The translations under genes and the position numbers were made by a program. DNA of 64,000 nucleotides from an uncultured Candidatus Saccharibacteria bacterium (lineage in GTDB: Bacteria; Patescibacteriota; Saccharimonadia; Saccharimonadales; Saccharimonadaceae): the NCBI GenBank assembly GCA_964639835.1, contig CAZXEG010000001.1, forward strand, positions 1,223 to 65,222, read 5' to 3'. The notes under the pieces were generated by a model that saw only the letters and a program-made list of their open reading frames with translations, was not told the origin of the DNA and did not search any database. Shown in pieces: positions 26,173-53,002 of this stretch (positions are counted from its first letter, which is position 1; each line of letters starts with the position of its first letter).

Positions 26173-26197
26173 TAAAACAATTATAGTGTTGTAAAAA

Positions 26198-28048
26198 TTA
26201 CAACACTATAGTATTAGCGATGAGCCTGTCAAGGAAAGCTTGGCGGGCTTTTTCGAGGTTATTGTCGGCCCCTTGCCAGAGGTCAAGCGAAGGCTCCTTC
26301 AGGGCGCGGGCAAAGGAGAAGGAAATGGGCCAGGGATAAGGGCCACTTGCAATAATAGCGGCGAGGTTTTTGGTGGCTTGGTCGGGAGTTTGACCGCCAG
26401 AGAGGAAGACGACGCCGGCGAGATCTTCGGGGACGTGGGCGCGGAGGACTTCGGAAGTGGCGTGGGCGACTTCGTCGGGTGTGGAGGGCTCGTCGTAGGC
26501 TTTGCCGGCGAGGATCATGTTGCATTTCAAGATACAGGCTCTTAAATTAACTTCGTAGGCGCGGAGGGCTTCGAAGAGGTTATCGAGGACGACTCCGGTG
26601 ACGGTAGCGCAGAGTTCGATGGGATAATTGCCATCATAAGACACTTCTGGTTCGACGATGGGTACAAGGCCAAAGGTTTGGCAATCTTTGGCAAATTCGG
26701 CGAGGCGACGGCAGTTTTCGCGGATGGCGTCTTCGGTAGGAGTGAGAATTTGGCCGTTTTCGCCGAGGGTAATGTTGAAACAGGCGCGCCATTTGGCGAA
26801 GCGGAGGCCCATTTGGTAATATTCGCGCAGGCGGGCGGGGAGGGAATCAAGGCCGTCGGTGTAAGTTTCGGAGGAGTTGTTGAAGGGGACGAGGCCTTGG
26901 TCGACCTTGATGCCAGGGATGATGCGGTGGCCAGTGAGGTAGTCGGGGTAGGTTTGGCCGGCGGAAGTGTGGTCGCGGGCGGTTTCGTCGAAGAGGATGA
27001 CGCCGTTAACGTATTGGTTGAGGTCGTCGAGAGTAAGGAAAATGTCGCGATAGGCGTGGCGATGCCGAAAATCGTTCGGGATGTGGAGCTTTTCGAATTG
27101 CTTCTTGATGGAGCCACCGGATTCATCGGCGGCGAGGATGCCTTTGCCTTTTAGCATGAGGCTTTTTGCGACGAGCTCGAGGTTGCCCTTGGAAGCGTGA
27201 AGGACGAGGTTTTCGAGCTCAGCGTAGTTAAGAGTGGAGCTCAAGGTGGAATGCTCGACGTTGACGCGGGCCATGCGGAGGCTGTACTCGACGGTTTTGC
27301 CGAGGATGAAGCCACCGAGGATGGTGGCGCTAATGATGGAATAAGCACTGAGGTGGGTGAGGGTATTGATGCGTTCGATGGAAACGTCTTCTCTGATGGA
27401 TTGGTAGGCTAAGTGGTCTTCGGCGATGGTGATGATGCGATCTTTTGGGAAGTCTTTTAAAACGCTAGGCATGGATGTAAGCGCGGTTTGATATTCCGGC
27501 CTTTTAGGCGGTTTTTCGAGGAAAATGAGGCTGGCGCGACGAATCAGGCCGGTGAGGATGAGGTTGGTTTGGTCCTTGAGATAGAGGATAAGCTTGACAT
27601 CCTTTGCGTAACTGAGGTAGGCGTTGATGCGGTCGACGACCTGAGGGGTGAGGTTGGCAGAGCGGTCGATGTAGAGATAATCGATGGGCTCGGTCGGGGT
27701 GGCGAAGAGGGATTTTTCGGCGATAGAAGGGGTGAAGTAGGTGACGCCGTTTTCGGTAGTCAAGATGTAGCGGTGAGTGGAAACTGGGGCGGTCGGGACT
27801 GGGCCGGTGGCGTCGAAGTGGAAATCGGTTTCGGAAATGGCGGTTTCTAACCCCATTTTTTGGAGAACTTCTAGAGTGATGGCGGCGCCACCGAAATTGC
27901 TAGTGCGGTTGAAAAAGTGATGCTCGCTGGCGTCGAAACTGAGGTCGAGCCAGTCAATCTGACGGCTGTCGGCTTCGATGTTTTCGGTTCTTTCGTCGAT
28001 ATTTAGATATACGTCTTTGATGACGTTGCCCACTACTAAGATCTTCAT
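26198..28048 (-). CDS. Degenerate PfkB-like domain fused to class I fructose-bisphosphate aldolase
   Basis: N-term ILVVGNVIKDVY..GGAA; C-term KGILAADES, GIKVDQG, FAKWR, PIVEPE, ILKCNM, FLSGGQ, SFSFARAL. Confidence 0.88.
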   Translation of the reverse strand: MKILVVGNVIKDVYLNIDERTENIEADSRQIDWLDLSFDASEHHFFNRTSNFGGAAITLEVLQKMGLETAISETDFHFDATGPVPTAPVSTHRYILTTENGVTYFTPSIAEKSLFATPTEPIDYLYIDRSANLTPQVVDRINAYLSYAKDVKLILYLKDQTNLILTGLIRRASLIFLEKPPKRPEYQTALTSMPSVLKDFPKDRIITIAEDHLAYQSIREDVSIERINTLTHLSAYSIISATILGGFILGKTVEYSLRMARVNVEHSTLSSTLNYAELENLVLHASKGNLELVAKSLMLKGKGILAADESGGSIKKQFEKLHIPNDFRHRHAYRDIFLTLDDLNQYVNGVILFDETARDHTSAGQTYPDYLTGHRIIPGIKVDQGLVPFNNSSETYTDGLDSLPARLREYYQMGLRFAKWRACFNITLGENGQILTPTEDAIRENCRRLAEFAKDCQTFGLVPIVEPEVSYDGNYPIELCATVTGVVLDNLFEALRAYEVNLRACILKCNMILAGKAYDEPSTPDEVAHATSEVLRAHVPEDLAGVVFLSGGQTPDQATKNLAAIIASGPYPWPISFSFARALKEPSLDLWQGADNNLEKARQAFLDRLIANTIVL

Positions 28049-28056
28049 ATATATTA

Positions 28057-28821
28057 TTATATCACACCTAAAATTCCGCGCAAGGCATAAGCGGTGTCTT
28101 CGTGGGAGCGGACGGTGATGGTGTCGATGCCCATCTGAACGACCGGGTAATCGTTGCCACCGGGGGCGGTCATGTCGCCGAAATAGAGGATGTCGGACTT
28201 TGCGACGTGGAGCTCCTCTAGGAGGTGGGTCATGCCGAATTCTTTGTTCATGCCAGGGGTGATGGCGTTAATAGAGGTAGTGCCGCCGATTTCGTAGTCA
28301 AACTCGGGGGCCTTTTCTTTGGCGAGGGCGACGATTTTTTCGCGTTTCTTGCAATCGGGGTCCCAAGCGTATTTGGCTTCGGTGCCGGCATGCTGGCCAA
28401 GGGCGGAAAAGGTGACTTGGGAGAGGCGGTTTTCGATGATTTCGTCGCCTGCTGCGAGCTGGTCGGCCTCCCAGAAGCCGAGCTCCTTGGCGGCCTCTTC
28501 GAGGGCTTGGCTGATTTTGGCGACTTGCTCGTCGGTTAAGGGGTAATTATAGACCTGGACCCAGTTATTTGTGGTAGTGTCGTACTTGTAATACTGAGTG
28601 CCCTGAGCGACGAAAAGGTGGAGATGGCTGAGCTGCTTTGGAGTGGGGTGAGGCAAGCGGTCGACGATTTGGATGAGGAATTGGTCGAATTTTTGCCCGG
28701 AAATAGGACAAATCTCGAAGTGGTCGAGACATTTGGTCAATAATTCTGCCATGTCGTCGTCGATGGGGGTTTTGGCGATGTTTAAGGTTTGGTCAATATC
28801 AAATGCTAGAACTTTTTTCAT
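28057..28821 (-). CDS. HAD-IIB hydrolase (phosphomannomutase-like)
   Basis: AFDIDQTL, ISGQ, IENRLSQVTFS, GGTTSI, YFGDMTAPGGND; start at MKKV. Confidence 0.85.
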   Translation of the reverse strand: MKKVLAFDIDQTLNIAKTPIDDDMAELLTKCLDHFEICPISGQKFDQFLIQIVDRLPHPTPKQLSHLHLFVAQGTQYYKYDTTTNNWVQVYNYPLTDEQVAKISQALEEAAKELGFWEADQLAAGDEIIENRLSQVTFSALGQHAGTEAKYAWDPDCKKREKIVALAKEKAPEFDYEIGGTTSINAITPGMNKEFGMTHLLEELHVAKSDILYFGDMTAPGGNDYPVVQMGIDTITVRSHEDTAYALRGILGVI

Positions 28822-28827
28822 ATTTTG

Positions 28828-28845
28828 ATTATAGCATGCTATAAT
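28828..28845. promoter_or_regulatory. Perfectly palindromic bidirectional -10 promoter
   Basis: ATTATAGCATGCTATAAT; each TATAAT is 6 nt from an ATG (28821 minus, 28852 plus). Confidence 0.8.
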
Positions 28846-28851
28846 GGGTTT

Positions 28852-29622
28852 ATGAAGACTTTTATCGTGGGCAACTTTAAAATGAATTTTACGGTGGGGG
28901 AGGCATCGATTTATTTGCATAAGTTGATGAAGAAAATACCGAATTACAGGGATGTGGAGGTGGTGGTAGCACCTTCGACTTTGGCGCTCCAGCCATTGTC
29001 TTTGCAGGTGGACCGGCACAAGATGAAGCTGTGTGCGCAGAATGCGTTTTACCGGGACTATGGGGCGTTTACGGGAGAGACGTCGTTTTCGCAACTGAGA
29101 GGGGTGGTGGATTATTGCTTGGTGGGGCATTCGGAGCGGCGGTATATTTTTGGCGAGGACGATAAGATGATTGCGAAAAAGGTGGCGGCGGCGGTGCGGA
29201 ATCGAATTCGGCCGATTTTGTGCATTGGCGAGACGGAGAGTGAGCGGGCGTTTCAGGAGACGGCGGATGTGATACGGGACCAGCTTTTGGGAGGGTTGTC
29301 GGAGGTATCGGAAGAGGATGTGACGAAGGTGATGGTGGCGTATGAGCCGGTGTGGGCGATTTCGTCGGTGTCGGCGGCGAAGCTAGCGACGCCGGATGAG
29401 GTGGCGGAAGTGGTGAAGCTGATAAGGGGAGTTTTGACGGAAGTGTACGGGAAAAAGACGGCAGAAGCGGTGACGGTGATGTTTGGCGGAAGCGTGAATC
29501 CGTCGAATGCGGGGGCGTATTTGACGGTGCCGGGGGTTTCTGGGCTACTCGTCGGTGGGTCGAGCTTGATTCTTTCGGAATTTGCTGATATAATAGAGGT
29601 AGCAAAGCGAGTAAACTCATGA
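28852..29622 (+). CDS. tpiA: Triosephosphate isomerase
   Basis: VGNFKMN, GAFTGE, GHSERR, CIGE, AYEPVWAI, GGSV, LVGGSSL. Confidence 0.96.
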   Translation: MKTFIVGNFKMNFTVGEASIYLHKLMKKIPNYRDVEVVVAPSTLALQPLSLQVDRHKMKLCAQNAFYRDYGAFTGETSFSQLRGVVDYCLVGHSERRYIFGEDDKMIAKKVAAAVRNRIRPILCIGETESERAFQETADVIRDQLLGGLSEVSEEDVTKVMVAYEPVWAISSVSAAKLATPDEVAEVVKLIRGVLTEVYGKKTAEAVTVMFGGSVNPSNAGAYLTVPGVSGLLVGGSSLILSEFADIIEVAKRVNS

Positions 29623-30323
29623 ATAAGCGATACATTGATTTTGTGCCAGTCAAGGGTGCAGAAAAGGTAGATACGAAGGTGGCTACAAGTGTAGCTACGA
29701 ATGAAGCCCGGGTGAAACCGGTTGCTATGCCGGCGAGAACTGCCCCGTCTAGCGCTGGGACGAAGAAAGTTGCTAGACCACAACCGGCGAGGGCAGTAGC
29801 GAAGCCGGAGTTTGATGTGACGCAAGTGATGGCAGAACGACATGTGGCTGGGGTGTCGGCGTCGAAGCGACCGCGGTATGGTGTGGTGGAAGATTATAGG
29901 CCGAAATTTGTGCAGACCGAAGTGAAGAAGCGACCCCTGTCGAAGCAAGCTATGAGGGACACATTGACGGATGCGAAGCAGAAGAAAATCGTGAAGCGAC
30001 CATTAGAAACGGTGGCAGAGAAGGTAGAAACGCTTTCGGAGCGGGAGCCACGGGCGTCGAAGGCAGTGGCGAAGAAGCAGGCAAAGCTTTTGAAGATGCC
30101 GAGAGTGCCGTTTGTGAACACTGATAAGATAGCGAAGCGACCTTTGTCGAAGAATGTGTACAAGAAGAAGGTGGTGGTGCCGAAGGAAGAGCCGTCGGGG
30201 CCGACGACGATTATCGAGAAGCCAGAGAAGGACTCGAAAGTGGGGATGGTGGTGGCGATTATTTTGACGATTATTCTGGGAGCAGCAGCTGGGACGGTGG
30301 CGTTTTTGCTACTGCCGAAGTAG
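29619..30323 (+). CDS. Hypothetical basic protein with C-terminal TM
   Basis: Overlaps tpiA stop; hydrophobic C-terminal helix. Confidence 0.7.
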   Translation: MNKRYIDFVPVKGAEKVDTKVATSVATNEARVKPVAMPARTAPSSAGTKKVARPQPARAVAKPEFDVTQVMAERHVAGVSASKRPRYGVVEDYRPKFVQTEVKKRPLSKQAMRDTLTDAKQKKIVKRPLETVAEKVETLSEREPRASKAVAKKQAKLLKMPRVPFVNTDKIAKRPLSKNVYKKKVVVPKEEPSGPTTIIEKPEKDSKVGMVVAIILTIILGAAAGTVAFLLLPK

Positions 30324-30345
30324 TTTAACGGGTGGCGGAGGTTTG

Positions 30346-30609
30346 ATGGATAAAAATCCGTTTATGAAATACGTGATGAAGGGGAATAAGAAGGAAGATA
30401 TTTTTCATTCGTCGGCGTACGGCAAGGCGCAGAACGGGGCCGGAATGGGGGTGGCGTCGACGGAGAGTTTTGCGAAACGGCGGGCGGTGGATTTGAACCG
30501 GCGAGTGGTGAGGGGGTATGGCGAGTCTGGGGTGGTGAATAATTCGAGGGCGCAAGGGCCGAAGGCGAAGCCATATACGCCGATTTCGCCAGAAAAAAAT
30601 AAAGCCTGA
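30346..30609 (+). CDS. Hypothetical protein
   Basis: GGAGG RBS, co-oriented, fills the gap before the tRNAs. Confidence 0.55.
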   Translation: MDKNPFMKYVMKGNKKEDIFHSSAYGKAQNGAGMGVASTESFAKRRAVDLNRRVVRGYGESGVVNNSRAQGPKAKPYTPISPEKNKA

Positions 30610-30622
30610 GGCTTTACCTGGT

Positions 30623-30697
30623 TGGTGCGGGTATGGAGGGTCGAACTCCAATCCTCAGTTTGGAAAACTGATATACTAGCCGCTGTACTATACCCGC
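30623..30697 (-). tRNA. tRNA-Gly(UCC)
   Basis: GCGGGTATAGTACAGCGG, TCAGT-TTTCCAA-ACTGA, GTTCGA, ACCA end. Confidence 0.92.
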
Positions 30698-30700
30698 GCG

Positions 30701-30778
30701 TGGGGTGGGATATCGGGATCGAACCGACGACCTTCTGGACCACAATCAGACGCTCTAACCATCTGAGCTAATCCCACC
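30701..30778 (-). tRNA. tRNA-His(GUG)
   Basis: G-1, C73, TCTGA-TTGTGGT-CCAGA, GGTTCGATCCC, CCA. Confidence 0.94.
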
Positions 30779-30867
30779 ATAGGTATTATTATACAGGGTT
30801 TCTCTAAAAATGCAAGGGGGTGTGGGCCGGGGTGCGTTGGAGATTTTTAGAATTTGTGGTTTTAGCA

Positions 30868-30896
30868 TTGACATTTTGAGCAAAGTGTGATATAAT
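30868..30896 (+). promoter_or_regulatory. Consensus sigma70 promoter
   Basis: TTGACA-17-TATAAT with AAGTGTGA extension. Confidence 0.75.
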
Positions 30897-30952
30897 GGAA
30901 TTATGTAGCTTAACAAGTGCCATTTTTTATTGAAAATAAGGAGGTGGAAAAG

Positions 30953-31459
30953 ATGTCAAAGAGCAAAGTTTTGGAAGAGATGGCAGCGAAGGCAGTAGCT
31001 GAGGCGTCAAAGCCCGAAGAGGTAAAGACGGAGAAGGTTGGACCCGAAGCGAAGGTGGAACCCGTGAAAGAGGTGACGCCCGAGCCACAGGCGAAACCGG
31101 AAACAGAACCGGAGGCGAAGCCGGAAGCGAAGGCAGAGCCGAAGGTAGAGCCGGAGGCAAAAGCGGAGGCGAAAGCGGAACCTGTTCCGGATGCTGTGTT
31201 GGCCGAAACTGTGCCTGAGACGGTGGTGACATCGTCACCGGCATCCCGGCCGGCGCCGGCGAAGCATCTCCCTGTGGAGTCTGAAATTGACTCTGTGGAC
31301 AGGAAACTTGCTGCTGCGATCGCTGAAATGAACGCGGTGATTGTGCTTTTGGACAACAAGATTGCTGTGGTCAAGAAGCTGAAAGCAGAGAAAGCGCAGG
31401 CTGAGCTTCGGATGAAGCAGAGAATCGCTGATATTAAGTCAGCGCTGGAAAGCCTGTAA
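30953..31459 (+). CDS. Hypothetical protein with PEAK-rich repeats and C-terminal coiled coil
   Basis: AAGGAGG RBS; start at MSKSK; terminator at 31473-31505. Confidence 0.75.
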   Translation: MSKSKVLEEMAAKAVAEASKPEEVKTEKVGPEAKVEPVKEVTPEPQAKPETEPEAKPEAKAEPKVEPEAKAEAKAEPVPDAVLAETVPETVVTSSPASRPAPAKHLPVESEIDSVDRKLAAAIAEMNAVIVLLDNKIAVVKKLKAEKAQAELRMKQRIADIKSALESL

Positions 31460-31472
31460 GCTACCCGTACCT

Positions 31473-31505
31473 TAGCCCCTAGTGTAATACTGGGGGCTAT
31501 TTTTT
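31473..31505 (+). terminator. Intrinsic terminator
   Basis: tagcccctagt/actgggggcta stem plus T6. Confidence 0.75.
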
Positions 31506-31561
31506 GTGCTAACAGGGGAGCTTAGCCCGACTAGACATAAGCGGAATATATGTTGAAAGTA

Positions 31562-31590
31562 TTGACAAAAACGCTTAAGTGTGATACAAT
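31562..31590 (+). promoter_or_regulatory. Consensus sigma70 promoter
   Basis: TTGACA-17-TACAAT with AAGTGTGA extension. Confidence 0.75.
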
Positions 31591-31741
31591 GGAATCAGTC
31601 TGAGTTTTGGGTGTGTTTTTCAAAACAAGACGATCGTTAACAGTCGAATCATCTCAGGTTTTAATAACCTGAATGCCTATATAGTAACTTCCCCAACAAC
31701 TGGGGGCGTTGCCCCCAACTACAAAAAAAGGAGGCAATGCC

Positions 31742-33685
31742 ATGATAATGATGTTACTAAATTTGGTTTTAGCAGTAGTGGTAATGAGCCTTTGGATGGC
31801 ATTAAATAACATGCTGTTCGAGGGTAAGAAAACTATAGTCAAAGTGGCTGAGAGTACCGCAGTCGGGACTGAGGGTAAGAAAACTATAGTCAAAGTGGCT
31901 GAGAGCATCGTAGTCGGGACTGCACTCGGAATCTTTAATTATGCGATTCCGAAGACGCCCTGGGGTGTGAGCCTGGTGGCCATGATTTTCGCCATATCTG
32001 CCATGATATACGTGGCGTATCTTTGGCTAAAGGAAGGTAGTAGCCTGAAGGAGTTTGTCTGCTACGCCGTGATCGTACTACTAATTTATGGAGTTGGCAA
32101 TGTTGCGGCTCAAGTGGTAGCTACTCAGGTAACTGGGTGGATCGCTGGAGTGATCTTGTGGCTTCCGGCGGCGGTGATGGCGACGGTCATAGTTTTTGCC
32201 ATTGGAAACGCAGTGAGTTTCTATGGGAAAAGCAGTGGAAATAAGTCGCTGGCGCAGGTCGGCAAGCTGGTAGTAGCGGCCGGCATCATCGTGGCGGCTA
32301 TTATGGTCGTCTATGGTGGAGCCAATGTAACGCGAAATGCTACCGGTGCCGGAGAGGCAATGGCTGCTCCGGCTGCAACAACGCAGATCCAGACCACGGA
32401 GAAGACTACCACTACTACTACGGTAGTCCCGGAAGCTGACGAAGCGCTTAGCTTCAATGCTGGGGTCGTGGAGGCAGCGGGGCTGACCGCTTGGCAGTAT
32501 CGGCATGACGGGGTGCTTGACAACGAAACGAAGAAGGATGATTACGATTTTAGTAACGATCCTTTGGACACGATTTTGACGCGTAGAGCGTCAAACGGAG
32601 AACTCTCCGTCAAGGACCTCGCCAACAAGTCCGAGAAGCAATTATACGGGCTGCTGGTTGGAGAAGACGCGGACGACATCCTCGAGGTAATTGAGGATTG
32701 GTACGCGCTTGACCCGGCTGGCATTGCTGGTATGGCGGCGTGGTATGACGCCAACATGCACACGGACATCTTGGGCGAGTTCTTCACGGATTGGAAGAAC
32801 GAGTCCAAGACGGCCGACTGGATGACCATCATCGAGTCGGCGGCGAGTGCATGGGCGGATGATCCTGAGCTCTTTTATGCGGCGAGGGATAATTTCTACG
32901 CCCACCTGGAGCATGCGGACGAAATTATCGTCCAGTACGTAAAGTCTGGGATTAATGACCAGATGTACATGGACGGGCTGACGATTGGCGAGCGACCGAA
33001 GGTCATCGTCATGGAATCGGCAAACCACGACGGATATTTCGTAACCTTTAAATATGTAATAAAGGAAACGAAGACCGTTGAGGTTTCGTACCGCATCAAC
33101 TGTGGCTTCCAGCCTTGCAATGTAGCCAAGGTGCTCGGAGTAAAGGCGAAGAAGAACCCGAACAAGCCGACACCGGTGCCACAGGCTGTTGGTGGCGGTG
33201 GTGGCTCTAGCTCTGGCTCCTCTGGTGGAGGCGGAGGTGGCTCTGGCTCCGGTGGCGGAGGTGGTGGTGGCATCAAGAAGAAAAATCCCACTGATGGGAT
33301 TGATACGTTGCCAAACGACGATCCCGGGCCGGGACCGAAGACCATCGATCCGTCCGACCCGTCGCATTCGACGGAGGATTTGCCGACCAACTCGAATCAT
33401 GAATCCTTGGATGACTACAAGGATGACATGAGCGAGCTGAAGGATATCAATGACCACCAGAAGGAAGGCGGCGATAGTAATACGCCGTCGACTTCGGCAT
33501 CGTCATCGGATACCAAGGTTGACTCAAATGCCGATTCTGGTACTGGTAACGGTGGGATAGATCATCCGACCGAAACTAGTAGCGGGGCAACTACCTCGGA
33601 TAGCGGTAACGGTGGGTCAACCGGTAGTTCGTCGTCGGTTTCAGACGACAAAGCGGGGGATGAATGGGAAGGTCCTTCGCTTTGA
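31742..33685 (+). CDS. Multi-TM membrane protein with large acidic, Gly/Ser-rich extracellular region
   Basis: AAAGGAGG RBS; about six N-terminal TM helices; Thr-rich and Gly-rich linkers. Confidence 0.75.
   Translation: MIMMLLNLVLAVVVMSLWMALNNMLFEGKKTIVKVAESTAVGTEGKKTIVKVAESIVVGTALGIFNYAIPKTPWGVSLVAMIFAISAMIYVAYLWLKEGSSLKEFVCYAVIVLLIYGVGNVAAQVVATQVTGWIAGVILWLPAAVMATVIVFAIGNAVSFYGKSSGNKSLAQVGKLVVAAGIIVAAIMVVYGGANVTRNATGAGEAMAAPAATTQIQTTEKTTTTTTVVPEADEALSFNAGVVEAAGLTAWQYRHDGVLDNETKKDDYDFSNDPLDTILTRRASNGELSVKDLANKSEKQLYGLLVGEDADDILEVIEDWYALDPAGIAGMAAWYDANMHTDILGEFFTDWKNESKTADWMTIIESAASAWADDPELFYAARDNFYAHLEHADEIIVQYVKSGINDQMYMDGLTIGERPKVIVMESANHDGYFVTFKYVIKETKTVEVSYRINCGFQPCNVAKVLGVKAKKNPNKPTPVPQAVGGGGGSSSGSSGGGGGGSGSGGGGGGGIKKKNPTDGIDTLPNDDPGPGPKTIDPSDPSHSTEDLPTNSNHESLDDYKDDMSELKDINDHQKEGGDSNTPSTSASSSDTKVDSNADSGTGNGGIDHPTETSSGATTSDSGNGGSTGSSSSVSDDKAGDEWEGPSL
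31820..31921 (+). repeat. In-frame 51-bp tandem duplication
   Basis: Two copies differing at 3 positions (EGKKTIVKVAESTAVGT / EGKKTIVKVAESIVVGT). Confidence 0.9.
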
Positions 33686-33871
33686 TTGTTTGACATATAT
33701 AGGCATGGTGGGGCCCGGTGAGCAGGACAAGCTCAAGCACTTTACTTGGTCCGGCGGTTTTTACCGCCGGGCTCTACCAAAGAGGCCCGCTATTGAAGCT
33801 TGAGATGATTCGATTGCTGACGGAAGGTGTGTTTTAAAAGCACCCTAAATATCATTAATAGAAAGGATAAT

Positions 33872-35137: not shown

Positions 35138-35165
35138 TTTACCCTGATCGCTTTAAACGCAGAGC

Positions 35166-35192
35166 AAAAACTCCCCCTTTGGGGGAGTTTTT
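35166..35192 (+). terminator. Intrinsic terminator
   Basis: aaaaactccccc-ttt-gggggagttttt. Confidence 0.8.
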
Positions 35193-35302
35193 GTGCGGTG
35201 GTTTTTGTGCGGTGGTTTTTGTGCGGTGGTTTTTGTGCGGTGGTTTTGGTGTGGTGTGATAGCGCGCGATGGTGAGGCGTGATGGGGTGGCGTGATGGGG
35301 TG
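35188..35302 (+). repeat. Intergenic tandem repeats
   Basis: TTTTTGTGCGGTGG x4 exact (35188-35243); GCGTGATGGGGTG x2 (35277-35302). Confidence 0.9.
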
Positions 35303-44773: not shown

Positions 44774-44787
44774 ACGTAAGGACAAAA

Positions 44788-45339: not shown

Positions 45340-45346
45340 GATTTTG

Positions 45347-46695: not shown

Positions 46696-46702
46696 AATTT
46701 TA

Positions 46703-47437
46703 TTATAGCACTCTAGCGTCCTTGATGTCAAAATCGCCGACTTTGGTGCGACGGAGAGCGGTGAGATAGGCGCCGGTTTTGAGGGCTTTGCCGATGTCTT
46801 CGGCGAGGGTGCGAATGTAGGTGCCGGAGCTACAATGGACGCGGACTTTGAGCTCGGGGTAGCGGTAGTCTAGGATGTCAATGCTGTAGATTTCGACTTC
46901 GCGTGCGGGGATTTCGAAATCCTGGCCGTTTCGGGCGAGCTTGTAGGCGCGTTGGCCGCCTATTTTGATGGCGGAGAATTTGGGTGGGGTTTGACTGAGT
47001 TTGCCTACGAAGCCAGAGATTACAGATTGCACCGTGCTCAGTCTTGGAGCCGCGTCGAAAACCCCTGTCGCCACAGGGGTTTTCGCGCTTATGCTCGCGC
47101 TGCCGCGCTCCGCGATCTCCTCGACTGAGCATGGTGCAATCTCGTTTTCGATTGAGTATGGCGTAATTTCGCCTTCGGGGTCGCCGGTGGTGGAAACGTA
47201 GCCGAGTTTCAGGGTGGCTTCGTAGACTTTGTCTTTCTTTAAGAATTCGTTGGATTTTTTGGTCATTTTGCCAGAGAGGAGGATGAGAAGGCCGGTGGCG
47301 AAGGGGTCTAACGTACCGGTGTGGCCGACTTTGATTTTGTGGCCAAATTCGTTTTTCAGTTTGGAGCGGATTTTGGCAACGACGCCGAAACTGCTAATGC
47401 CGGCGGGTTTGTCGATGAGGATAATCTGGTCTTCCAT
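46703..47437 (-). CDS. truB: tRNA pseudouridine(55) synthase carrying an in-frame palindromic insertion
   Basis: IDKPAGISS, KVGHTGTLDPFATGLL, PPKFSAIK, CSSGTYIRTLAED. Confidence 0.95.
   Translation of the reverse strand: MEDQIILIDKPAGISSFGVVAKIRSKLKNEFGHKIKVGHTGTLDPFATGLLILLSGKMTKKSNEFLKKDKVYEATLKLGYVSTTGDPEGEITPYSIENEIAPCSVEEIAERGSASISAKTPVATGVFDAAPRLSTVQSVISGFVGKLSQTPPKFSAIKIGGQRAYKLARNGQDFEIPAREVEIYSIDILDYRYPELKVRVHCSSGTYIRTLAEDIGKALKTGAYLTALRRTKVGDFDIKDARVL
47024..47142. mobile_element. Palindromic element family B, copy inside truB
   Basis: 20-bp outer inverted repeat (1 mismatch), 13-bp inner hairpin 47056-47085, 29-nt core 47084-47112 shared with the lepA copy. Confidence 0.75.
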
Positions 47438-47478
47438 CTCTTGATTATAACATAAAAGTGTGGTATAATGGGGACACT

Positions 47479-47745
47479 ATGATAACAAAAGAGAATAAAG
47501 AGAAAGCTATTGCCAAGGTGGCTCGGAATAAGAGCGACGTTGGTTCTCCTGAAGTTCAAGTGGCTATTCTGACGGCTCGCATCAAAGAGGTGACGGAGCA
47601 CGTGAAGAATAATAAACATGACTTTATGGCTAAAAGAGGTCTAATCCAGATGGTAGGGAAGCGGAAGAAACTGCTGAAGTACTTGGAAAAGACAGATTTT
47701 GAGCTATATAAGAAAACGGTAGCTAAATTGGGCCTTAGGAAATAG
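47479..47745 (+). CDS. rpsO: 30S ribosomal protein S15
   Basis: DVGSPEVQVAILTARI, HVKNNKHD..RGLIQMVGKRKKLLKYL. Confidence 0.97.
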   Translation: MITKENKEKAIAKVARNKSDVGSPEVQVAILTARIKEVTEHVKNNKHDFMAKRGLIQMVGKRKKLLKYLEKTDFELYKKTVAKLGLRK

Positions 47746-47851
47746 ATTTCGGCAAGATACTGTGTCAGCAGTTCCGGTACTCAGTCGGCGCACAATAAGT
47801 GCGCCTTCTTCCGTTCCTCACTGCTTCCTTGTCTCTTGCTCGAAATCTATT
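47741..47851. repeat. Multi-stem element overlapping the rpsO stop
   Basis: AATAGATTTCGGCAAGA / TCTTGCTCGAAATCTATT outer stem, inner GGCGCAC-aataa-GTGCGCC, GCAG/CTGC stem. Confidence 0.6.
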
Positions 47852-47859
47852 CCCTGAGA

Positions 47860-47885
47860 AAAACCCGCTCGAGAGAGCGGGTTTT
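47860..47885. terminator. Bidirectional terminator
   Basis: aaaacccgctc-gaga-gagcgggtttt. Confidence 0.75.
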
Positions 47886-47898
47886 AAGGTGCTTAAAT

Positions 47899-48567
47899 TT
47901 AAATGGATGCTTCTTCGTTGATGTTGGCGACTAGTTCGGTGGTTTCCGAATAGTTGCGGAGTTCGATTGAAACTCTGTCGAACTCTTCGAGGATGCCGGC
48001 GATCTTTTTGAAGTAACCCTCGACGCGAGGGTCGGGGTTGTCGTTTTTGTATCTGATGTCGTGCTCGATGCTTGCCCAGAGGTTCATGGATTTTGAACGA
48101 ATCTGGATTTCGACGGGCACGAGTTTACTACCGGTAGAAGTATAGATTTCTACCTGGCAACCGAAATGGAGACTGCTGTAGCCGTTGGGCTTGGGCTGGT
48201 CTACATAATTCTTTCTCCGGACGATGTTGATGCCCGGAATGTGCTCGATCAAGTTCGCGACAATGTTGATCTCGTCACGGTATTTGGTGACGATTCGGAT
48301 GCCGGCGATGTCGCAGACGTTTTGCCTGATTGACTCGATGGTCTGCGGAAAGTCCTTCTTGCGGCACTTTTTAATGGTGCTTTCGAAGGTTTTGATCCGG
48401 CTCTCGATACGGTCGAACGGGTTTTTCCCACTTGAACGCGAGAGTGATCTACGCATGTTTTCGATGCGAACCAGCGTAATGTTTAAGGCTGATTCACATT
48501 CGGATGCGTAGTCGTCGTAATCGTCGATTAACGAGTCATTGTCGGGATCGAAGGTTAACTCATCCAT
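47899..48567 (-). CDS. Small alarmone synthetase (RelP/RelQ-like, RelA_SpoT domain)
   Basis: SRIKTFES..K, DIAGIRIV, PKPNGYSSLH, VEIQIRS..LWASIEH; start at MDELT after GGGG RBS. Confidence 0.88.
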   Translation of the reverse strand: MDELTFDPDNDSLIDDYDDYASECESALNITLVRIENMRRSLSRSSGKNPFDRIESRIKTFESTIKKCRKKDFPQTIESIRQNVCDIAGIRIVTKYRDEINIVANLIEHIPGINIVRRKNYVDQPKPNGYSSLHFGCQVEIYTSTGSKLVPVEIQIRSKSMNLWASIEHDIRYKNDNPDPRVEGYFKKIAGILEEFDRVSIELRNYSETTELVANINEEASI

Positions 48568-48677
48568 ATTTACCCCCTTATGGTAAAGTGCAAGATTTAA
48601 TACTCCATGTATAATTATAGCACAAGTTGTATAAAAAGTCAAGGTGTGGTATACTAGGGGTAGGATACATTAACAAT

Positions 48678-48772
48678 AGGGAAGACGGCAGAGACGGACC
48701 CATCAGAGTCCAACGGGCATTTCGTTGTTGTTGGTGCCGGTTGCTGGTGAGTCCATCTCTGATGTTTTCCCT
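48678..48772 (+). promoter_or_regulatory. Long hairpin in the pnp 5' leader
   Basis: AGGGAAGAC/GTTTTCCCT, CAGAGACGGAC/GTCCATCTCTG and CATCAG/CTGGTG nested stems. Confidence 0.6.
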
Positions 48773-48787
48773 TAGGAAAGGATTTTT

Positions 48788-50959
48788 ATGGAAATTATCA
48801 ACCCTAATGGCAAAAAGACGATTCAGGTTTCGACTGAATGGCTGGGGCGGACTTTGACACTAGAGGTGAATAGAGTGGGGTTTCGGTCGACTTCGTCGGT
48901 GCTCGTGACCTATGGCGATACGGTGGTTTTGGGCTCGGTGGTAGTGGGGACGAAGCCGGTGGTGCAGGACTTTTTCCCATTGTCGATTGATTACGAAGAG
49001 AAGTTTTATGCGGCGGGGAAGATTTCGTCGTCGAGGTTTATTAAGCGGGAGGGGAAGCCGGCGGATGAAGCGGTGCTGGTCGGGCGACTGATCGACCGAC
49101 CGATCCGGCCGCTGTTCCCGAAGGGGTATCGGCAAGAGGTACAGGTGGTGTGTACGGTGCTTTCTATGGATCCGACGTTTCGGCCGGATTGCGTGGCGAT
49201 GATTGCGGCGTCGTCGGCTCTCATGAATGCGGGGGTACCGTTTGATGGGCCGGTGGCGGGGATTCGGATTGGAAGGATTTCTGGTGAGTTTAAGGGATTC
49301 TTGAGCCCGGCGGAGCGCCAGGTGTCGCCGCTTGACCTTGTAGTAGCGTGTAAAGACGGTAAGGTGATGATGGTGGAGGCTGGCGCGAATGAAGTGCCGG
49401 AGGACACGATTATCGAGGCGATGCATTGGGCAGTGAAGAATGTGCAGCCGGCGCTAGATTTGCAAAGGCAACTAGCGAAAATTGTGGATGCTCCGGAACA
49501 GGAATACGAGTTGGTGTTGCCGACCGAGGAGATTATTGAGGAAGTGGCGGCTTGGACTGAGGGGAAATTTGGTTCGCAGATACGGGGGAATGTGATGGAG
49601 CGGTCGCAGATGCTGGACGATCTCAAATATGCGATGCATGATGAAATGGCCTTGAAACACGGTGAGGGGGCGACGGATGATGACAAGGTGAAATGGTATG
49701 ATGAGAATTTGCGGGATGTGTATGACCAGGCGTTTGAGCTGACGGTGTTTAAGGAAGTGAGGCGGGGGATTATCGAAGAGGGGGTGCGGCCGGATGGGCG
49801 GAAGCTCGAGGAAGTGCGGCCTCTCTCCTCGCAAGTTTCGATTTTGCCGAGGGTGCACGGGTCGTCGCTGTTTACACGAGGGGTGACGCAGGCGATGAAT
49901 ATTGTGACTTTGGCGCCGCTCTCGTATGCGCAGGAAGTGGACACGATGGAAGTGACGGATGGCAAGCGGCGGTATATGCACCACTACAATGCGCCGTCTT
50001 ATACGGTGGGGGAGTGTGGTCGGATGGGCTCGCCGGGACGACGTGAGATCGGGCATGGGTACTTGGCGGAGCGGGCGCTTTTACCAGTGCTACCGTCTGA
50101 GGAAGAGTTCCCGTACGCGATTCGCTCGGTGACGGAGATTATGTCGCAGAATGGGTCGACTTCGATGGCGGCGACTTGTTCGTCTTGTATGGCCTTGATG
50201 GATGCGGGGGTGCCTTTGAAACGGCCGGTGTCGGGGGTGGCGATGGGGCTGATGGTGGACGTGCCGAAGGGTGAGCCGATTGAGGCTTCGGATATCGACA
50301 AAGCGTATGTTTTGACTGATTTAATGGATGCGGAAGATTTTGCCGGAGATATGGACTTTAAGGTAACTGGTACGACGGAGGGGGTGACGGCGCTCCAGAT
50401 GGACATGAAAGTGCATGGGCTACCGGTAGAGATTCTTGAGAAGGCGATCAAGCAATCGCATGAGGGGCGGATGTTTATCTTGAAGCACTTGGTGAGCGTG
50501 ATTGCGGGGCCGCGAGATAAGATTTCGGATTTGGCACCAAGGATTGAGAAAGTGAAGATTTCGAAAGACAAGATTGGGACGGTGATCGGCAAGGGTGGCG
50601 AGACGATTAACAAGATTACTTCGGAAACGGGGGCGGAAGTGGATATTGACGAAGATGGGCTGGTGACGATTGCCGGAACGGATGGCGAGTCGATTCGGAA
50701 GGCGGTTGAGTGGGTGAAGGCCCTAACGGAAGAGCCGGAGGTGGGGAAAATCTACGAAGGTAAGGTGGTGACGATTAAGGACTTCGGGGCGTTTGTGAAC
50801 ATTTTGCCGGGGATTGACGGGATGTTGCACATTTCGCAGATTACGGATAAGAAGCGGTTGAAGTCGGTGGAGGAAATGCTCCATGTAGGGGACATGGTGA
50901 AGGTGAAGCTGGTGGCGATTGACCAGAAGGGGAAGTTGTCGCTGTCGATGATTTATTAG
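48788..50959 (+). CDS. pnp: Polyribonucleotide nucleotidyltransferase
   Basis: RLIDRPIRPLFP, HGSSLFTRG, RREIGHG, NGSTSMA, GDMDFKV, KH and S1 domains. Confidence 0.97.
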   Translation: MEIINPNGKKTIQVSTEWLGRTLTLEVNRVGFRSTSSVLVTYGDTVVLGSVVVGTKPVVQDFFPLSIDYEEKFYAAGKISSSRFIKREGKPADEAVLVGRLIDRPIRPLFPKGYRQEVQVVCTVLSMDPTFRPDCVAMIAASSALMNAGVPFDGPVAGIRIGRISGEFKGFLSPAERQVSPLDLVVACKDGKVMMVEAGANEVPEDTIIEAMHWAVKNVQPALDLQRQLAKIVDAPEQEYELVLPTEEIIEEVAAWTEGKFGSQIRGNVMERSQMLDDLKYAMHDEMALKHGEGATDDDKVKWYDENLRDVYDQAFELTVFKEVRRGIIEEGVRPDGRKLEEVRPLSSQVSILPRVHGSSLFTRGVTQAMNIVTLAPLSYAQEVDTMEVTDGKRRYMHHYNAPSYTVGECGRMGSPGRREIGHGYLAERALLPVLPSEEEFPYAIRSVTEIMSQNGSTSMAATCSSCMALMDAGVPLKRPVSGVAMGLMVDVPKGEPIEASDIDKAYVLTDLMDAEDFAGDMDFKVTGTTEGVTALQMDMKVHGLPVEILEKAIKQSHEGRMFILKHLVSVIAGPRDKISDLAPRIEKVKISKDKIGTVIGKGGETINKITSETGAEVDIDEDGLVTIAGTDGESIRKAVEWVKALTEEPEVGKIYEGKVVTIKDFGAFVNILPGIDGMLHISQITDKKRLKSVEEMLHVGDMVKVKLVAIDQKGKLSLSMIY

Positions 50960-51038
50960 ACTTTCTTTGAAAAAGAAAGTCTAGCAAAGAAACAATGAAG
51001 TCAAAAGTCACAGAGCCCGACTTTTGACTTTGATTATG
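50957..51038 (+). repeat. Two-hairpin repeat family A, copy 3
   Basis: TAGACTTTCTTT-gaa-AAAGAAAGTCTA, GCAAAGAAACAATG, AAGTCAAAAGTC-acagagccc-GACTTTTGACTT, TGATTATG. Confidence 0.8.
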
Positions 51039-51064
51039 ACGGGAAATATAGTATAATTATAGAG

Positions 51065-53002
51065 ATGGATAAGATACGGAATTTTTGCATAATTGCGCAT
51101 ATTGATCATGGCAAATCCACCATTGCAGATAGGATGATGGAATTGACCGGGACGGTGTCGAAGCGAGAGATGAAGGAGCAGTTGCTCGATTCGATGGAGC
51201 TTGAGCGGGAGAAGGGGATTACGATTAAGCTGGCGCCGGTGACGATGGAGTGGAAGGGGTATACGCTGAACTTGATTGATACGCCGGGGCATGTGGACTT
51301 TTCGTATGAGGTGTCGCGTTCTTTGGCGGCGGTGGAGATTGCCGTCCTGGTAGTGGATGCAACGCAAGGGATACAGGCACAGACGCTCGCGAATGTGTAT
51401 CTGGCGCTCGAGCAGGACCTTAAGATTATTCCAGTGATCAATAAAGTGGATTTGCCGGCGGCGGATGTGCCGGGGGTGGCGGCGCAGATTGTGAATTTGC
51501 TGGGGTGCTCCAGAGATGAGATTATTGAGGTGTCTGGGAAAACTGGGTATAATGTGGATAAAATATTGGATGCTGTGGTGGCTGAGCCAGACTTAGTTGC
51601 GGGGTCGCGTCGCTCGCGCCCGTCGACTGAAGTCGTCCGCCAGTCGTCGCCTCGAAACAACGAACGAGTTCGTTGTTCGCTCGGCTCCTCCGGCGGTCTG
51701 CCACGGGGCTCGCGCGCTAATCCTCGCGCTGCCGCGCTCCGGAATACCCCGCAACTAAGCCTGGCTCAGACGCCTACCAGGGCGCTAATATTTGATTCGT
51801 ATTTCGATGATTACCGAGGGGTGGTGTTGTATGTGAGGGTGTTTGAGGGGGAGATTGCGAAAAATTCGGAGATTTTGATGATGGCGGCGGGGAAGAAGGG
51901 GTTAGCGCTCGAGGTGGGGGTGTTGACGCCGAAGATGAGCCCGAGGGAGAAGTTGTCGGCGGGGGAGATTGGGTACATCGTGACGAATCTCAAGACGACA
52001 CGAGAGGCAAAAGTAGGTGATACCGTTACAATTTGGAATACCCAAGTGGACTCTGCATTGGAGCCTTTGCCTGGGTATAAGGATGTATTGCCGTTTGTGT
52101 ATGCAGGGTTTTTCCCGGTGTCGAATGAGCAGTATAAGGAGTTGAAAGAAGCGGTGGAGAAACTGGCGCTGTCGGACTCGGCGCTGAGGTATGAGCCGGA
52201 GAATTCGCCGGTTCTAGGCTTTGGGCTTAGGATTGGGTTTTTGGGGCTGCTTCACATGGATATCATTCGGGAGAGGCTGGAGCGGGAGTTCGGGCTGGAC
52301 TTGATTGTGACAAATCCATCGACGAATTACGAGGTGATACTTTCTGATGGAGAGAGGCTGGAGATAAAATCGGCGGCGGATTTGCCGGACATTTCGAAAG
52401 TGGCGGAGATTCGGGAACCGTGGGTGAAGGGTGAAATTATCGTGCCACGGGAGATGATTGGCGGGGTTTTGAACCTGATTAATGAGAAGCGAGGGCATCA
52501 GACGAGCTTGTCATATATTGAAGAGCGGGCGGTGATTGATTTTGAGGCGCCGATGGCGAATCTTCTGACGGATTTTTATGATCAACTGAAGTCGGTGACG
52601 AGCGGGTATGCGTCGTTTAATTATGAGCTTTCGGGGTACCGGGCGGAGGATTTGGTGCGAGTAGACTTTTTGGTGGGTGGACATAAACTTGATGCACTGT
52701 CAATAATGTGCCACAGGTCGGAGGCGGATAAGATTGGGCGAGAGACGGTGAAAAAGCTGAAAGAGGTGATCCCGCGGCAAAACTATGAGGTGGCACTTCA
52801 GGCGGCGATTGGGGCGCGGATTATTGCGCGGGAGACGATCGGGGCATACCGAAAAGACGTGACGGTGAAAATCCATACGGGCGACCGCGACCGGAAGGCG
52901 AAGTTGCTAGAAAAGCAGAAGCGGGGTAAGGCGCGGATGAAGCGGTTTGGAAAAATTGATATTCCTTCGGAAGCGTTTACCGTAATGCTAAAGCGAGATT
53001 AG
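51065..53002 (+). CDS. lepA: Elongation factor 4 carrying an in-frame palindromic insertion
   Basis: IAHIDHGKST, RGITIK, DTPGHVDF, NKVD, GFLGLLHM, KLLEKQKRGK. Confidence 0.97.
   Translation: MDKIRNFCIIAHIDHGKSTIADRMMELTGTVSKREMKEQLLDSMELEREKGITIKLAPVTMEWKGYTLNLIDTPGHVDFSYEVSRSLAAVEIAVLVVDATQGIQAQTLANVYLALEQDLKIIPVINKVDLPAADVPGVAAQIVNLLGCSRDEIIEVSGKTGYNVDKILDAVVAEPDLVAGSRRSRPSTEVVRQSSPRNNERVRCSLGSSGGLPRGSRANPRAAALRNTPQLSLAQTPTRALIFDSYFDDYRGVVLYVRVFEGEIAKNSEILMMAAGKKGLALEVGVLTPKMSPREKLSAGEIGYIVTNLKTTREAKVGDTVTIWNTQVDSALEPLPGYKDVLPFVYAGFFPVSNEQYKELKEAVEKLALSDSALRYEPENSPVLGFGLRIGFLGLLHMDIIRERLEREFGLDLIVTNPSTNYEVILSDGERLEIKSAADLPDISKVAEIREPWVKGEIIVPREMIGGVLNLINEKRGHQTSLSYIEERAVIDFEAPMANLLTDFYDQLKSVTSGYASFNYELSGYRAEDLVRVDFLVGGHKLDALSIMCHRSEADKIGRETVKKLKEVIPRQNYEVALQAAIGARIIARETIGAYRKDVTVKIHTGDRDRKAKLLEKQKRGKARMKRFGKIDIPSEAFTVMLKRD
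51582..51769. mobile_element. Palindromic element family B, copy inside lepA
   Basis: 24-bp outer inverted repeat (1 mismatch), inner hairpin 51656-51677, core 51713-51741 matching the truB copy at 27/29. Confidence 0.78.

Follow-up and report, generated by a model that had tools for sequence, protein, structure and literature searches.

In the window analysed here, a stretch of 64,000 nucleotides from an uncultured Candidatus Saccharibacteria bacterium of the gut, several hairpins seem to be built from one arm of host sequence and one arm that is its inverted copy, which raises the question of how such stems arise and whether a single process could produce all of them. The usual marks of a mobile element are fixed ends and a direct duplication of its target. 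The preliminary description had suggested an insertion or repair process generating inverted rather than direct target duplications, by which two repeat families (A and B) could be unified. The check that it proposed, namely a search for orthologous empty alleles holding exactly one of the two arms, was carried out, and such alleles were found at the GatA and rpsO sites. The features of the window are collected in table 1.

Family B is defined by an exact 18-mer core present in 11 copies in the 745 kb genome, all of them in-frame within genes and in open frames (11/11), with TruB, LepA, LeuRS, ValRS, GatA and TatD among the hosts. The same 18-mer was detected in 25 of the 60 further congeneric genomes searched and in none of 149 genomes of other genera, a distribution limited, among the genomes searched, to one genus of Saccharibacteria; no Rfam family matched the element. 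Each of the 11 copies is flanked by inverted arms of 17–30 nt that are private to its locus. Over all copies examined (11 in this genome and 24 more in congeners), every core carries arms (35/35) and, as first described, copies share their cores and not their arms: the cores are more than 90% identical, and arms are unrelated from one copy to another. Such arm pairing lies far outside chance: the median arm-alignment score of the 35 elements is 35, whereas 600 random genomic positions gave a median of 15, with 22 as the 99th percentile. Depending on the host gene, the core is translated as PRAAALRN, SSRCRAP, AERGSASISA or RSAAARAEAP; since translation of the inserts runs in four or more frames or orientations, the conserved unit is DNA rather than peptide. 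The only arm sequence common to copies is the TCGGGGC/GCCCCGA adjoining the core, and most of them have one and the same 8-nt sequence next to the core. However, TCGGGGC occurs 106 times in the genome (approx. 98 expected) and only about nine of these occurrences lie within elements, so that the motif alone is not sufficient to set the insertion site.

The strain-level comparison of an empty and a filled allele (n = 1) concerns GatA, and the junction microhomologies of 9, 8 and 3 nt all come from this single event. A 98.6%-identical strain has an empty site holding exactly the left arm, TTTCGGGGCC included, whereas the filled allele of the source genome is longer by 90 nt, consisting of the core and an inverted copy of the left arm; the flanks are identical at 1375 of 1395 nt. 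This duplication is inverted and of about 25 nt, the direct repeat at the junctions being just the 3-nt GCC in which the insert ends and by which it is preceded. The core-adjoining TCGGGGC/GCCCCGA already existed in the empty target. The new core, of the 64–140 nt class and common to other loci, was inserted together with the copied arm (the new sequence is not all local); it is identical to that of the LeuRS copy, divergence beginning exactly after GCCCCGAA. Although recent, the copy arm is already inexact, with one mismatch and one additional base relative to its template. The tree requires at least four state changes (gain and loss) at this site, and no pre-existing palindrome was found at any of the empty sites inspected.

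At rpsO, the stop codon TAG (47743–47745) does lie in the left arm of a 125-nt hairpin, as had been noticed. In relatives, the stop codon and ATT(T)(T)GGCAA.. are directly followed by the terminator: only the left arm is present there and the copy arm is a net addition, as judged from a nucleotide-level comparison across species. In both GatA and rpsO, the junctions show new sequence that reverse-complements its neighbourhood, and microhomology is found where the switches occurred. The core at rpsO belongs to another family (C); in other species, copies of this family are present in truB and in a PolA-like gene, likewise with locus-specific arms containing native motifs.

Three further genes point in the same direction through protein or codon homology. 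The arm of the truB insert reported to encode RLSTVQS at the position expected for the native helix indeed reads PRLSTVQS, and this gene-3′ arm is the start of the native helix itself, insert-free orthologues displaying P-x-x-x-[DE]-[VI]...F.G at the same position. Of the 81 truB loci compared, linkers exceed 24 aa in 53, and outer arms of 17–33 nt are present in 30 or more of these; in most, the 3′ arm ends one to five codons ahead of the F.G motif. Within the truB arms, EIQEY codons pair with TLES codons. The left arm of the copy in a NrdG-like gene shows homology to codons of the native N-terminus in relatives, and in the ligA-like gene of a congener (G039) an arm carries the essential E-I-R-G-E context. 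The direction from host arm to copy, relative to the core, varies: in GatA, truB and the NrdG-like gene it is the reverse of that in ligA and another locus (L025). The left arm of the lepA insert is probably the host arm, judging from congeners in which the native xPxP motif sits in that arm; its long core variant recurs in an FtsJ-like gene (contig C15). The LepA and LeuRS linkers are wholly different sequences in a 98%-identical strain; such linker alleles are moved by recombination as well, which can blur their histories.

Table 1. Hairpins, arms and cores located in the window (positions count from its first letter).
Feature	Positions	Strand	Remarks
Family A copy, for comparison	8793–8877	+	
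Family A copy, for comparison	15651–15735	+	
Aldolase hairpin	26180–26212	.	15 bp, perfect, no core, between convergent genes; right arm 26198–26212 = stop and last four codons (TIVL), left arm its mirror
truB insert, host arm	47024–47049	-	Gene strand encodes PRLSTVQS, before the F.G motif
truB insert, family B core	47050–47116	.	18-mer at 47094–47111 (+); minus-strand translation EEIAERGSASISAKTPVATGVFDAA
truB insert, copy arm	47117–47142	-	Inverted copy of 47024–47049, 23/26 complementary; encodes EIAPCSVEE
rpsO hairpin, host arm	47734–47757	+	Last three rpsO codons, TAG stop and native spacer up to the terminator position of relatives
rpsO hairpin, family C core	47758–47833	+	76 nt; single copy in the genome, related copies at other loci in three congeners
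rpsO hairpin, inverted copy of host arm	47834–47858	+	25 nt; net insertion
rpsO canonical intrinsic terminator	47862–47888	+	Pushed downstream by the insert
Family A two-hairpin intergenic element after pnp	50957–51040	+	Hairpin 1 = 50957–50983, begins at the pnp stop TAG
lepA insert, left arm (probable host arm)	51582–51605	+	Encodes AEPDLVAG
lepA insert, long family B core variant	51606–51745	+	Extra internal hairpin; 18-mer at 51723–51740
lepA insert, right arm	51746–51769	+	23/24 complementary to left arm; encodes PQLSLAQ

The mobile cores of families B and C are small and non-coding (about 65–140 nt), and each insertion consists of a core and a reverse-complement copy of 17–30 nt of host DNA taken from one side. 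Thereby, one arm of the stem is pre-existing host sequence and the other is new, as had been proposed and as holds for these two families. Landing sites are coding linkers and loops, entered in-frame, or positions directly after a stop codon or before a start codon.

The reading that we favour, with a probability of roughly 0.6, is that the inverted target duplication is made by fold-back or template-switch synthesis, and that template switching later maintains and extends the stems. Synthesis of the insert would take place on one DNA strand, in the course of replication or repair, and would comprise three steps. A 3′ end finishing in target sequence that resembles the sequence adjoining the core (TTCGGGGCC at GatA) would pair with another copy of the element and copy its core; the fresh ...GCCCCGAA end would then snap back on its own TTCGGGGC and copy upstream host bases in reverse; finally, synthesis would rejoin the original template through a microhomology of a few bases (GCC at GatA). 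Later on, intrastrand template switching would keep the arms complementary and grow the stem outward until protein constraint stops its growth, hairpin deletions would remove copies, and no dedicated transposase would be needed. The individual steps have precedents in the literature, both for hairpins made and maintained by template switching (PMC8794818) and for fold-back inverted duplications at yeast DNA breaks (PMC11724301).

The orientation of the copies fits such a replication-linked single-strand mechanism: relative to GC skew, the core strand is on the G-rich strand for 11/11 copies in the genome and for 30 of 35 overall (30:5, p = 2e-5). Mismatches between arms, read on the sense strand, comprise 31 A·C versus 18 G·T, and since there is no G·U excess, they give no sign of selection for mRNA pairing. 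Compensated arm differences were observed between orthologous copies (PepN in G000 versus G004; L021 versus L039). An additional nucleotide in the arm 3′ of the core, found in 15/35 copies versus 2/35 for the other arm, is not predicted by the template-switch model. A wider proposal is put forward tentatively, at slightly worse than even odds: that these cores form a class of mobile DNA independent of any transposase, which spreads when replication switches template (a donor copy is captured through microhomology, the nascent strand snaps back, and synthesis returns through microhomology), is recognisable by a footprint of 17–30 nt of inverted target duplication and repeatedly remodels surface linkers of essential Saccharibacteria proteins.

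Core-less remnants in which only arms are left occur at these hot spots too (L065 in truB, L117 in lepA), as do core-less hairpins at aldolase 3′ ends of several species, and orthologous PepN sites carry different core subtypes (G000 versus G004), as gene conversion would yield. Both observations would be expected from a two-step origin, in which a local fold-back mutation first creates a core-less palindrome at a site ending in TCGGGGC and the core is then gained by short-homology recombination or gene conversion via the TCGGGGC/GCCCCGA stem. However, the GatA empty allele contains no intermediate palindrome, no arms-only palindrome with TCGGGGCC-GGCCCCGA at its centre was seen even though all cores are armed, and 8–9 bp of homology is very short for recombination, so that this origin appears rather unlikely.

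Retro-insertion, whereby a reverse transcriptase would copy element RNA from a target nick (target-primed) and the cDNA end would snap back to copy the flank, is less probable still. Snap-back is a classic behaviour of reverse transcriptases, which, together with their low fidelity, would account for an imperfect copy arm, and the genome has four such genes (three generic or DGR-like and one AbiP2). Yet reverse transcriptases show no association with the core across 60 congeners (present in 18/25 genomes with it and 24/35 without), three genomes rich in core copies (G067, G068 and G057; 96–99% complete, six to eight exact cores each) gave no RVT_1 match, and no master copy adjoins a reverse transcriptase gene.

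An unrecognised DNA enzyme, such as a hairpin-binding recombinase, a nuclease or an HUH-type enzyme acting on single-stranded DNA at the fork, could also insert the core and leave host repair to generate the inverted flank. The strong replication-strand orientation bias of family B is shared with transposition of the IS200/IS605 type (including RAYT/REPtron), which acts on single strands; the one-base bulge found systematically on one arm is reminiscent of attC hairpins, on which extrahelical bases guide integrase; and the same 8-nt sequence adjoins most cores. The enzyme classes covered by our search were Y1 transposases and reverse transcriptases, and no match to the Y1 (HUH) transposase (Y1_Tnp, PF01797) was found in the 94%-complete genome, whereas control genomes were positive. 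This genome of 745 kb has few mobile-element genes, arm length is variable, unlike a fixed stagger, and no enzyme family is known to leave an inverted target copy of 17–30 nt; we thus give this possibility as little credence as retro-insertion. Finally, an old conventional palindromic element whose once identical arms diverged while selection on mRNA structure kept them paired, or cores inserting into pre-existing palindromes, would suit the truB, lepA, TatD and PepN sites, filled in several species with differing arms and compensated changes, but is refuted for GatA and rpsO and extremely improbable overall, given that the recent GatA insertion already has locus-specific arms, one of them pre-existing, that empty sites are not palindromic, that a sense-strand G·U excess is lacking and that near-identical cores stand beside unrelated arms.

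Among known systems, the Rickettsia palindromic elements (RPEs) are likewise short palindromic repeats of a reduced, host-dependent bacterium, inserted in-frame in unrelated housekeeping genes, translated as extra loops and free of any associated transposase (PMC10969869, PMC3733652). However, RPE families are reported to encode a conserved peptide in one frame (PMC10969869) and to be conserved over their full length, whereas only the centre of family B is; the outer 17–30 nt of family B elements are copied from the target, and inverted target duplication is not described for RPEs in PMC10969869 or PMC3733652. Distribution also sets the two apart, RPEs being elements of Rickettsiales and family B, among the genomes searched, of one Saccharibacteria genus. 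REP/CGTC repeats and MITEs (Correia, ERIC, RUP and others) are dispersed stem-loop repeats as well, sometimes lying within ORFs or providing stop codons. The CGTC repeat families, which lack a dedicated transposase, consist of a 20–40 bp palindrome with a CGTC tag, an 8–9 bp stem starting with A/T pairs, a 4–5 nt loop and a CCA tail (PMC3733652). In core B, a CGTC precedes the first inner hairpin; its inner stems comprise 10–12 bp of G/C, the loop (TCGCCA) has 6 nt, and a CCA tail is absent. In MITEs, the terminal inverted repeats are fixed and the target duplication is short and direct, whereas the ‘terminal repeats’ of family B differ at each locus, one of them being the target.

Template-switch mutation, or quasipalindrome correction, is the subject of the Ripley model and of assays from the Lovett laboratory. 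Like the process favoured here, it copies adjacent sequence as its reverse complement along the nascent or complementary strand; it creates perfect stems in one event, repairs and maintains existing ones, and explains multi-base compensatory changes (Monttinen and Loytynoja 2022, PMC8794818). Classical events copy local sequence only, whereas a conserved foreign core common to dozens of loci and species is involved here; because every event also carries this core, the process behaves as a mobile element. At yeast DNA breaks, fold-back inverted duplications copy 5–34 bp of flank, with fold-back microhomology and hybrid end capture (PMC11724301), a size range matching the present arms; however, they are a eukaryotic by-product of break repair, without a recurring core and not heritable as a family. 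In mitochondria of Nematomorpha, long inverted repeats occur in functional protein-coding genes, both arms being translated under amino-acid constraint (PMC6649704), but these repeats lack a mobile core in common, and no insertion event is linked to their origin.

An element that takes its ends anew from the target at each insertion would escape all standard repeat and MITE finders and, if the favoured reading is true, a polymerase-driven route of DNA mobility would be added beside the enzyme-driven ones. Template switching, so far mostly inferred indirectly, would gain a natural test case that is dated and replicated, with a single event at strain level and dozens of orthologous sites. Such insertions would also explain the odd hypervariable loops of 25–60 residues in many Saccharibacteria housekeeping proteins (LepA, TruB, GatA and aminoacyl-tRNA synthetases), which are of relevance for annotation, the alignment of phylogenetic markers and structure prediction in candidate-phyla bacteria. 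How hairpins are dealt with at the fork in ultra-small genomes with reduced repair tool-kits could be approached through the strand bias and the one-base bulge.

Two hairpins of the window call for another account. The class-I aldolase gene, identified by Pfam on the minus strand, has its end mirrored as described for 26182–26194, the perfect pairing extending to 15 bp (26180–26194 with 26198–26212), and the stem is followed on the gene strand by a T-rich tract, ATTGTTTTAC. To judge from these features, it is probably an ordinary terminator-type hairpin overlapping the stop codon, in line with the earlier suggestion that selection for terminators could explain some cases; an inverted-copy origin is plausible here but inseparable from such selection. 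After pnp, the stop codon (50957–50959) does start a family A hairpin: it supplies the initial three nucleotides of a 12-bp stem, pairing with the CTA at 50981–50983. Nevertheless, both arms of hairpin 1 are conserved in approximately 20 copies and travel with the element, the very behaviour that the preliminary description had set against its own proposal. Because both arms correspond to the family A consensus, those at pnp are not host-derived, and the TAG...CTA pair reads as a compensated variant of the consensus stem base; the one-host-arm pattern thus does not extend to family A, and its unification with family B by one process fails. Hairpin 2 of family A is followed in about 20 copies by a T-rich tract, TTTTGATTAT, a putative terminator.

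The clearest view of what is inserted comes from GatA, one of the host genes of family B (in-gene elements with a common core, marked by an exact 18-mer, and locus-specific inverted arms). An ENA metagenome encodes a GatA protein 30 residues shorter than that of the genome of the window (G000) and elsewhere identical to it at 459/463 residues, the contig of this empty allele being identical at 1375/1395 nt over the gene. The empty allele contains the complete left arm, including TTTCGGGGCC, followed by the immediately downstream codons; at this site, G000 carries 90 additional bases, which consist of the core and the reverse complement of the left arm. The last bases of the insert (GCC) are the same three bases as those found just before it. 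GatA and LeuRS carry identical cores, and their sequences part directly after GCCCCGAA. In the GatA tree, the filled state requires at least four changes, with support of 100/97 and 100/98 for sister species of which one is filled and the other empty. Thus, in this single strain-level event, the empty allele holds exactly one arm, and the inverted target duplication proposed in the preliminary description is upheld: one arm (the host arm) pre-exists, and the core with its inverted flank (the copy arm) is a net insertion.

The same arrangement is seen at rpsO, whose stop codon does lie, as initially noted, in the left arm of a 125-nt hairpin. More than 10 congeners display the rpsO stop, ATT(T)(T)GGCAA.. 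and the terminator directly after, so that alleles without insert hold the left-arm spacer only. G000 displays the same spacer as left arm, then a 76-nt core, a 25-nt inverted copy and the terminator; the inverted copy is net additional DNA and replaces nothing. This core (family C) is single-copy in G000, and related cores were retrieved in other genomes, with the native motifs GD.EGE and DDIIGTLA in the arm 5' of the core in G049 and G061, respectively. In further species, these truB and lepA linkers house other, unrelated hairpin families. Accordingly, insertion of a core plus an inverted flank is a general mode in the genus.

At truB, the identification of one arm as the native helix was correct. 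Insert-free TruB orthologues read GDPEGE-(~10 residues)-P-x-x-x-[DE]-[VI]-...-F.G, and wherever an insert is present, in G000 as in all such congeners, this native helix forms the gene-3' arm and its complement the 5' arm. TruB linkers exceed 24 residues in 53 of the 81 loci, at least 30 of which have clear outer arms, mostly with the 3' arm stopping 1-5 codons before F.G. In many species the stem has grown up to the pairing of EIQEY codons with TLES codons, indicating that both arms are constrained coding sequence. The N-terminal codons native to relatives can be recognised in the left arm of the NrdG-like gene (TDWHKIS changed to AEGHTNS). Host arms are likewise clear where inserts of relatives were compared with empty G000 orthologues, namely in the ligA-like gene, whose host arm contains E-I-E-I preceding RGE, and at loci L025 and L036. 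For the lepA insert, the left arm is probably the host arm. Scoring host arms by protein alignment against single G000 orthologues was decisive at approximately 6/17 sites only, because linkers are too variable.

Coordinates and settings of the features discussed
Feature	Location	Remarks
Family A copies	window 8793-8877, 15651-15735, 50957-51040	
pnp stop TAG	window 50957-50959	opens 12-bp stem closed by CTA
Aldolase stem	window 26180-26194 pairs with 26198-26212	class-I aldolase by Pfam
truB arm	window 47024-47049	encodes PRLSTVQS on gene strand
rpsO left arm	window 47734-47757	stop TAG at 47743-47745
Family C relative	G031, after stop codon	own arms
Family C relative	G049, truB hot spot	own arms
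Family C relative	G061, PolA-like gene	own arms
NrdG-like gene, upstream part	G000 C5:4338-4465	family B insert
Reverse transcriptase genes	G000 C36:2301-3491, C12:15507-16727, C7:10503-12080, C3:27465-28826	
Tandem 14-nt repeat	window 35180-35256	TGCGGTGGTTTTTG, ~5 copies
Tandem 51-nt repeat	window 31820-31921	2 copies, 94% identical

Genome-wide, the exact 18-mer of family B occurs 11 times in G000. The long hairpin formed by each copy has a centre that is conserved and outer arms of 17-30 nt without match anywhere else; the initial observation of common cores with distinct arms thus extends to the whole genome. Elements reach a median arm score of 35, versus a median of 15 and a 99th percentile of 22 for random positions; the outer boundaries are blurred by chance matches, making arm lengths unsuited to reading-frame arithmetic. 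All 11 copies lie in open reading frames without introducing stops (TruB, LepA, LeuRS, ValRS, GatA, TatD, an FtsJ-type methyltransferase, an M1 aminopeptidase, a P-type ATPase, a beta-lactamase-like protein and the NrdG-like activase). As translation of the core runs in either orientation and in four or more frames, the DNA rather than a peptide is what is conserved. Of 60 further congeneric genomes searched, 25 carry the 18-mer (1-15 copies each); with up to one mismatch allowed, it was absent from all 149 genomes sampled across 119 other genera of the same order. No Rfam family matched the elements.

Not every hairpin initially reported belongs to this pattern. Family A, a two-hairpin intergenic module with approximately 20 copies genome-wide, located 0-12 nt after stop codons, has both arms of hairpin 1 conserved (GGACTTTCTTT / AAAGAAAGTCC), with covariation at the stem base only. 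Hence family A stands outside, and the idea of one process unifying families A and B fails. The stop codon of pnp does open a hairpin and is mirrored, as described, but the TAG...CTA pair is a covarying family A variant rather than copied host DNA. The stem of hairpin 2 varies in sequence with full compensation, its loop (CAGGCACATGTCCTG) is conserved, and its T-rich tail ends with TTGATTAT(A/G)A; it resembles a terminator, and family A possibly includes a promoter module. Similarly, the mirroring of the aldolase 3' end was confirmed, the stop and last four codons lying in a perfect 15-bp stem, which is a terminator-type hairpin overlapping the stop; an origin as inverted copy is plausible here, as is selection. 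Several congeners have unrelated aldolase C-terminal tails, also paired with the sequence just downstream, compatible with hairpins produced by local template switching and, to the same degree, with a drift of stop codons into the stems of terminators.

Other near-strain comparisons were less direct. At LeuRS, a 98%-identical strain displays an unrelated 16-residue linker and an adjoining patch of raised synonymous divergence, which suggests a recombination patch (allele replacement) through which the filled allele was acquired or lost, and leaves the comparison uninformative. In this strain (L118 versus G000 C3, 98% identical across LeuRS), 7 of 24 synonymous-type positions differ over the 8 codons just 3' of the insert or linker. 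The LepA comparison was also uninformative on arm origin, the linker of the 98%-like strain being unrelated and containing an arms-only hairpin of its own (10 bp). Near-strain clusters of TruB, TatD, ValRS and the beta-lactamase-like protein contain no empty allele. Selection on mRNA pairing was ruled out: arm mismatches on the sense strand comprise 31 A·C versus 18 G·T, an excess of A·C over G·U showing that mRNA pairing is not what is preserved. Insertion into existing palindromes was rejected, as the empty sites examined are not palindromic, and TCGGGGC is not a sufficient target, with approximately 9 of its 106 occurrences within elements.

Of the systems already described, the Rickettsia palindromic element (RPE) comes nearest, forming in-frame palindromes in housekeeping genes without a transposase (PMC10969869, PMC3733652); however, RPEs are described as encoding a conserved peptide, and the cited work mentions no target-derived arms for them, unlike family B. 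MITEs and REPs have fixed ends, in contrast to the locus-specific arms of families B and C, and classical template-switch mutations lack the shared core. The coding palindromes of Nematomorpha (PMC6649704) have in common only the outcome that both arms are translated. Given these differences, we place families B and C in none of these kinds.

The orientation of the elements follows strand composition. GC skew in G000 is very large and uniform per contig (~±0.2 to 0.35, contigs C1-C49), and the G-rich strand carries the 18-mer for 11/11 copies in G000 and 30/35 overall (p = 2e-5), or 24:1 at loci with |skew| >0.1; some congeners have almost no skew, so that their copies are uninformative on polarity. 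A fixed polarity of the host arm relative to the core was ruled out, both configurations being found. Where skew is strong, six determinable cases (few and not fully independent: rpsO, truB, GatA and the NrdG-like gene in G000, and the family C copies of G061 and G049) have the host arm on the 5' side of the core along the G-rich strand, with L034 as the one exception. Among the relatives (L256-L263), strong skew was also observed in G031, G049, G061 and G064 (0.23-0.44), and values near zero in G011, G032, G039 and G057, a sharp contrast in strand composition inside one genus.

The search for associated enzymes covered two families. No Y1 transposase was found in G000; reverse transcriptase genes are present, yet their occurrence in the genus is not associated with that of the element, and three near-complete genomes carrying 6-8 copies have none. 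The four G000 genes comprise three generic or DGR-like types and one AbiP2-type defence gene (E = 4e-123, PADLOC model). Arm pre-existence, net insertion, microhomology at the insert junctions (one event at strain level), core orientation following the replication strand and these enzyme results are consistent with an event driven by a polymerase on a single strand. In it, a 3' end would be captured by a donor copy via a TTCGGGGCC-like target, snap back at GCCCCGAA / TTCGGGGC, copy the flank in reverse and return to the original template via microhomology; we infer both the donor capture and the enzyme independence. This model does not account for the imperfect copy arm of the recent GatA event, for the whole-linker differences in a 98%-identical strain, or for the additional base carried by the arm on the 3' side of the core (15/35 versus 2/35 in the other arm).

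Once present, stems appear dynamic. In orthologous copies (PepN of G000 versus G004; L021 versus L039), changes are paired across both arms, a one-base bulge is shared and the core subtype can differ; hot spots also include arms-only hairpins (L065, L117). The elementary steps of the proposed event have precedents in other systems. Quasipalindrome correction is established in E. coli. Template switching both makes and maintains hairpins (PMC8794818), and fold-back inverted duplications of 5-34 bp arise at breaks (PMC11724301).

G000 totals 745 kb in 53 contigs, with the window at C1:1223-65222; among public genomes, G000 is closest to 'Candidatus Nanosyncoccus sp.' and to Candidatus Saccharibacteria MAGs recovered from guts of goat, sheep, yak, buffalo and roe-deer. 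In its NrdG-like gene, the insert stands in place of a conserved N-terminal segment of relatives (MTDWHKISLEKIAKQLETP) and puts an ATG within the copy arm, so that the start codon used may be inside the hairpin; a 90%-identical relative has a longer core at this site. The window also carries two tandem repeats. Finally, low-complexity inserts such as 'WAGDAPGGGPPLSDSEMGE..RARQDPPS' occur in several G000 proteins at sites of family B in relatives (the C4 orthologue of the L016/L041 sites; C10); this peptide, found in at least three G000 proteins, including the N-terminal region of an FtsJ-like ORF, possibly represents another inserted family.
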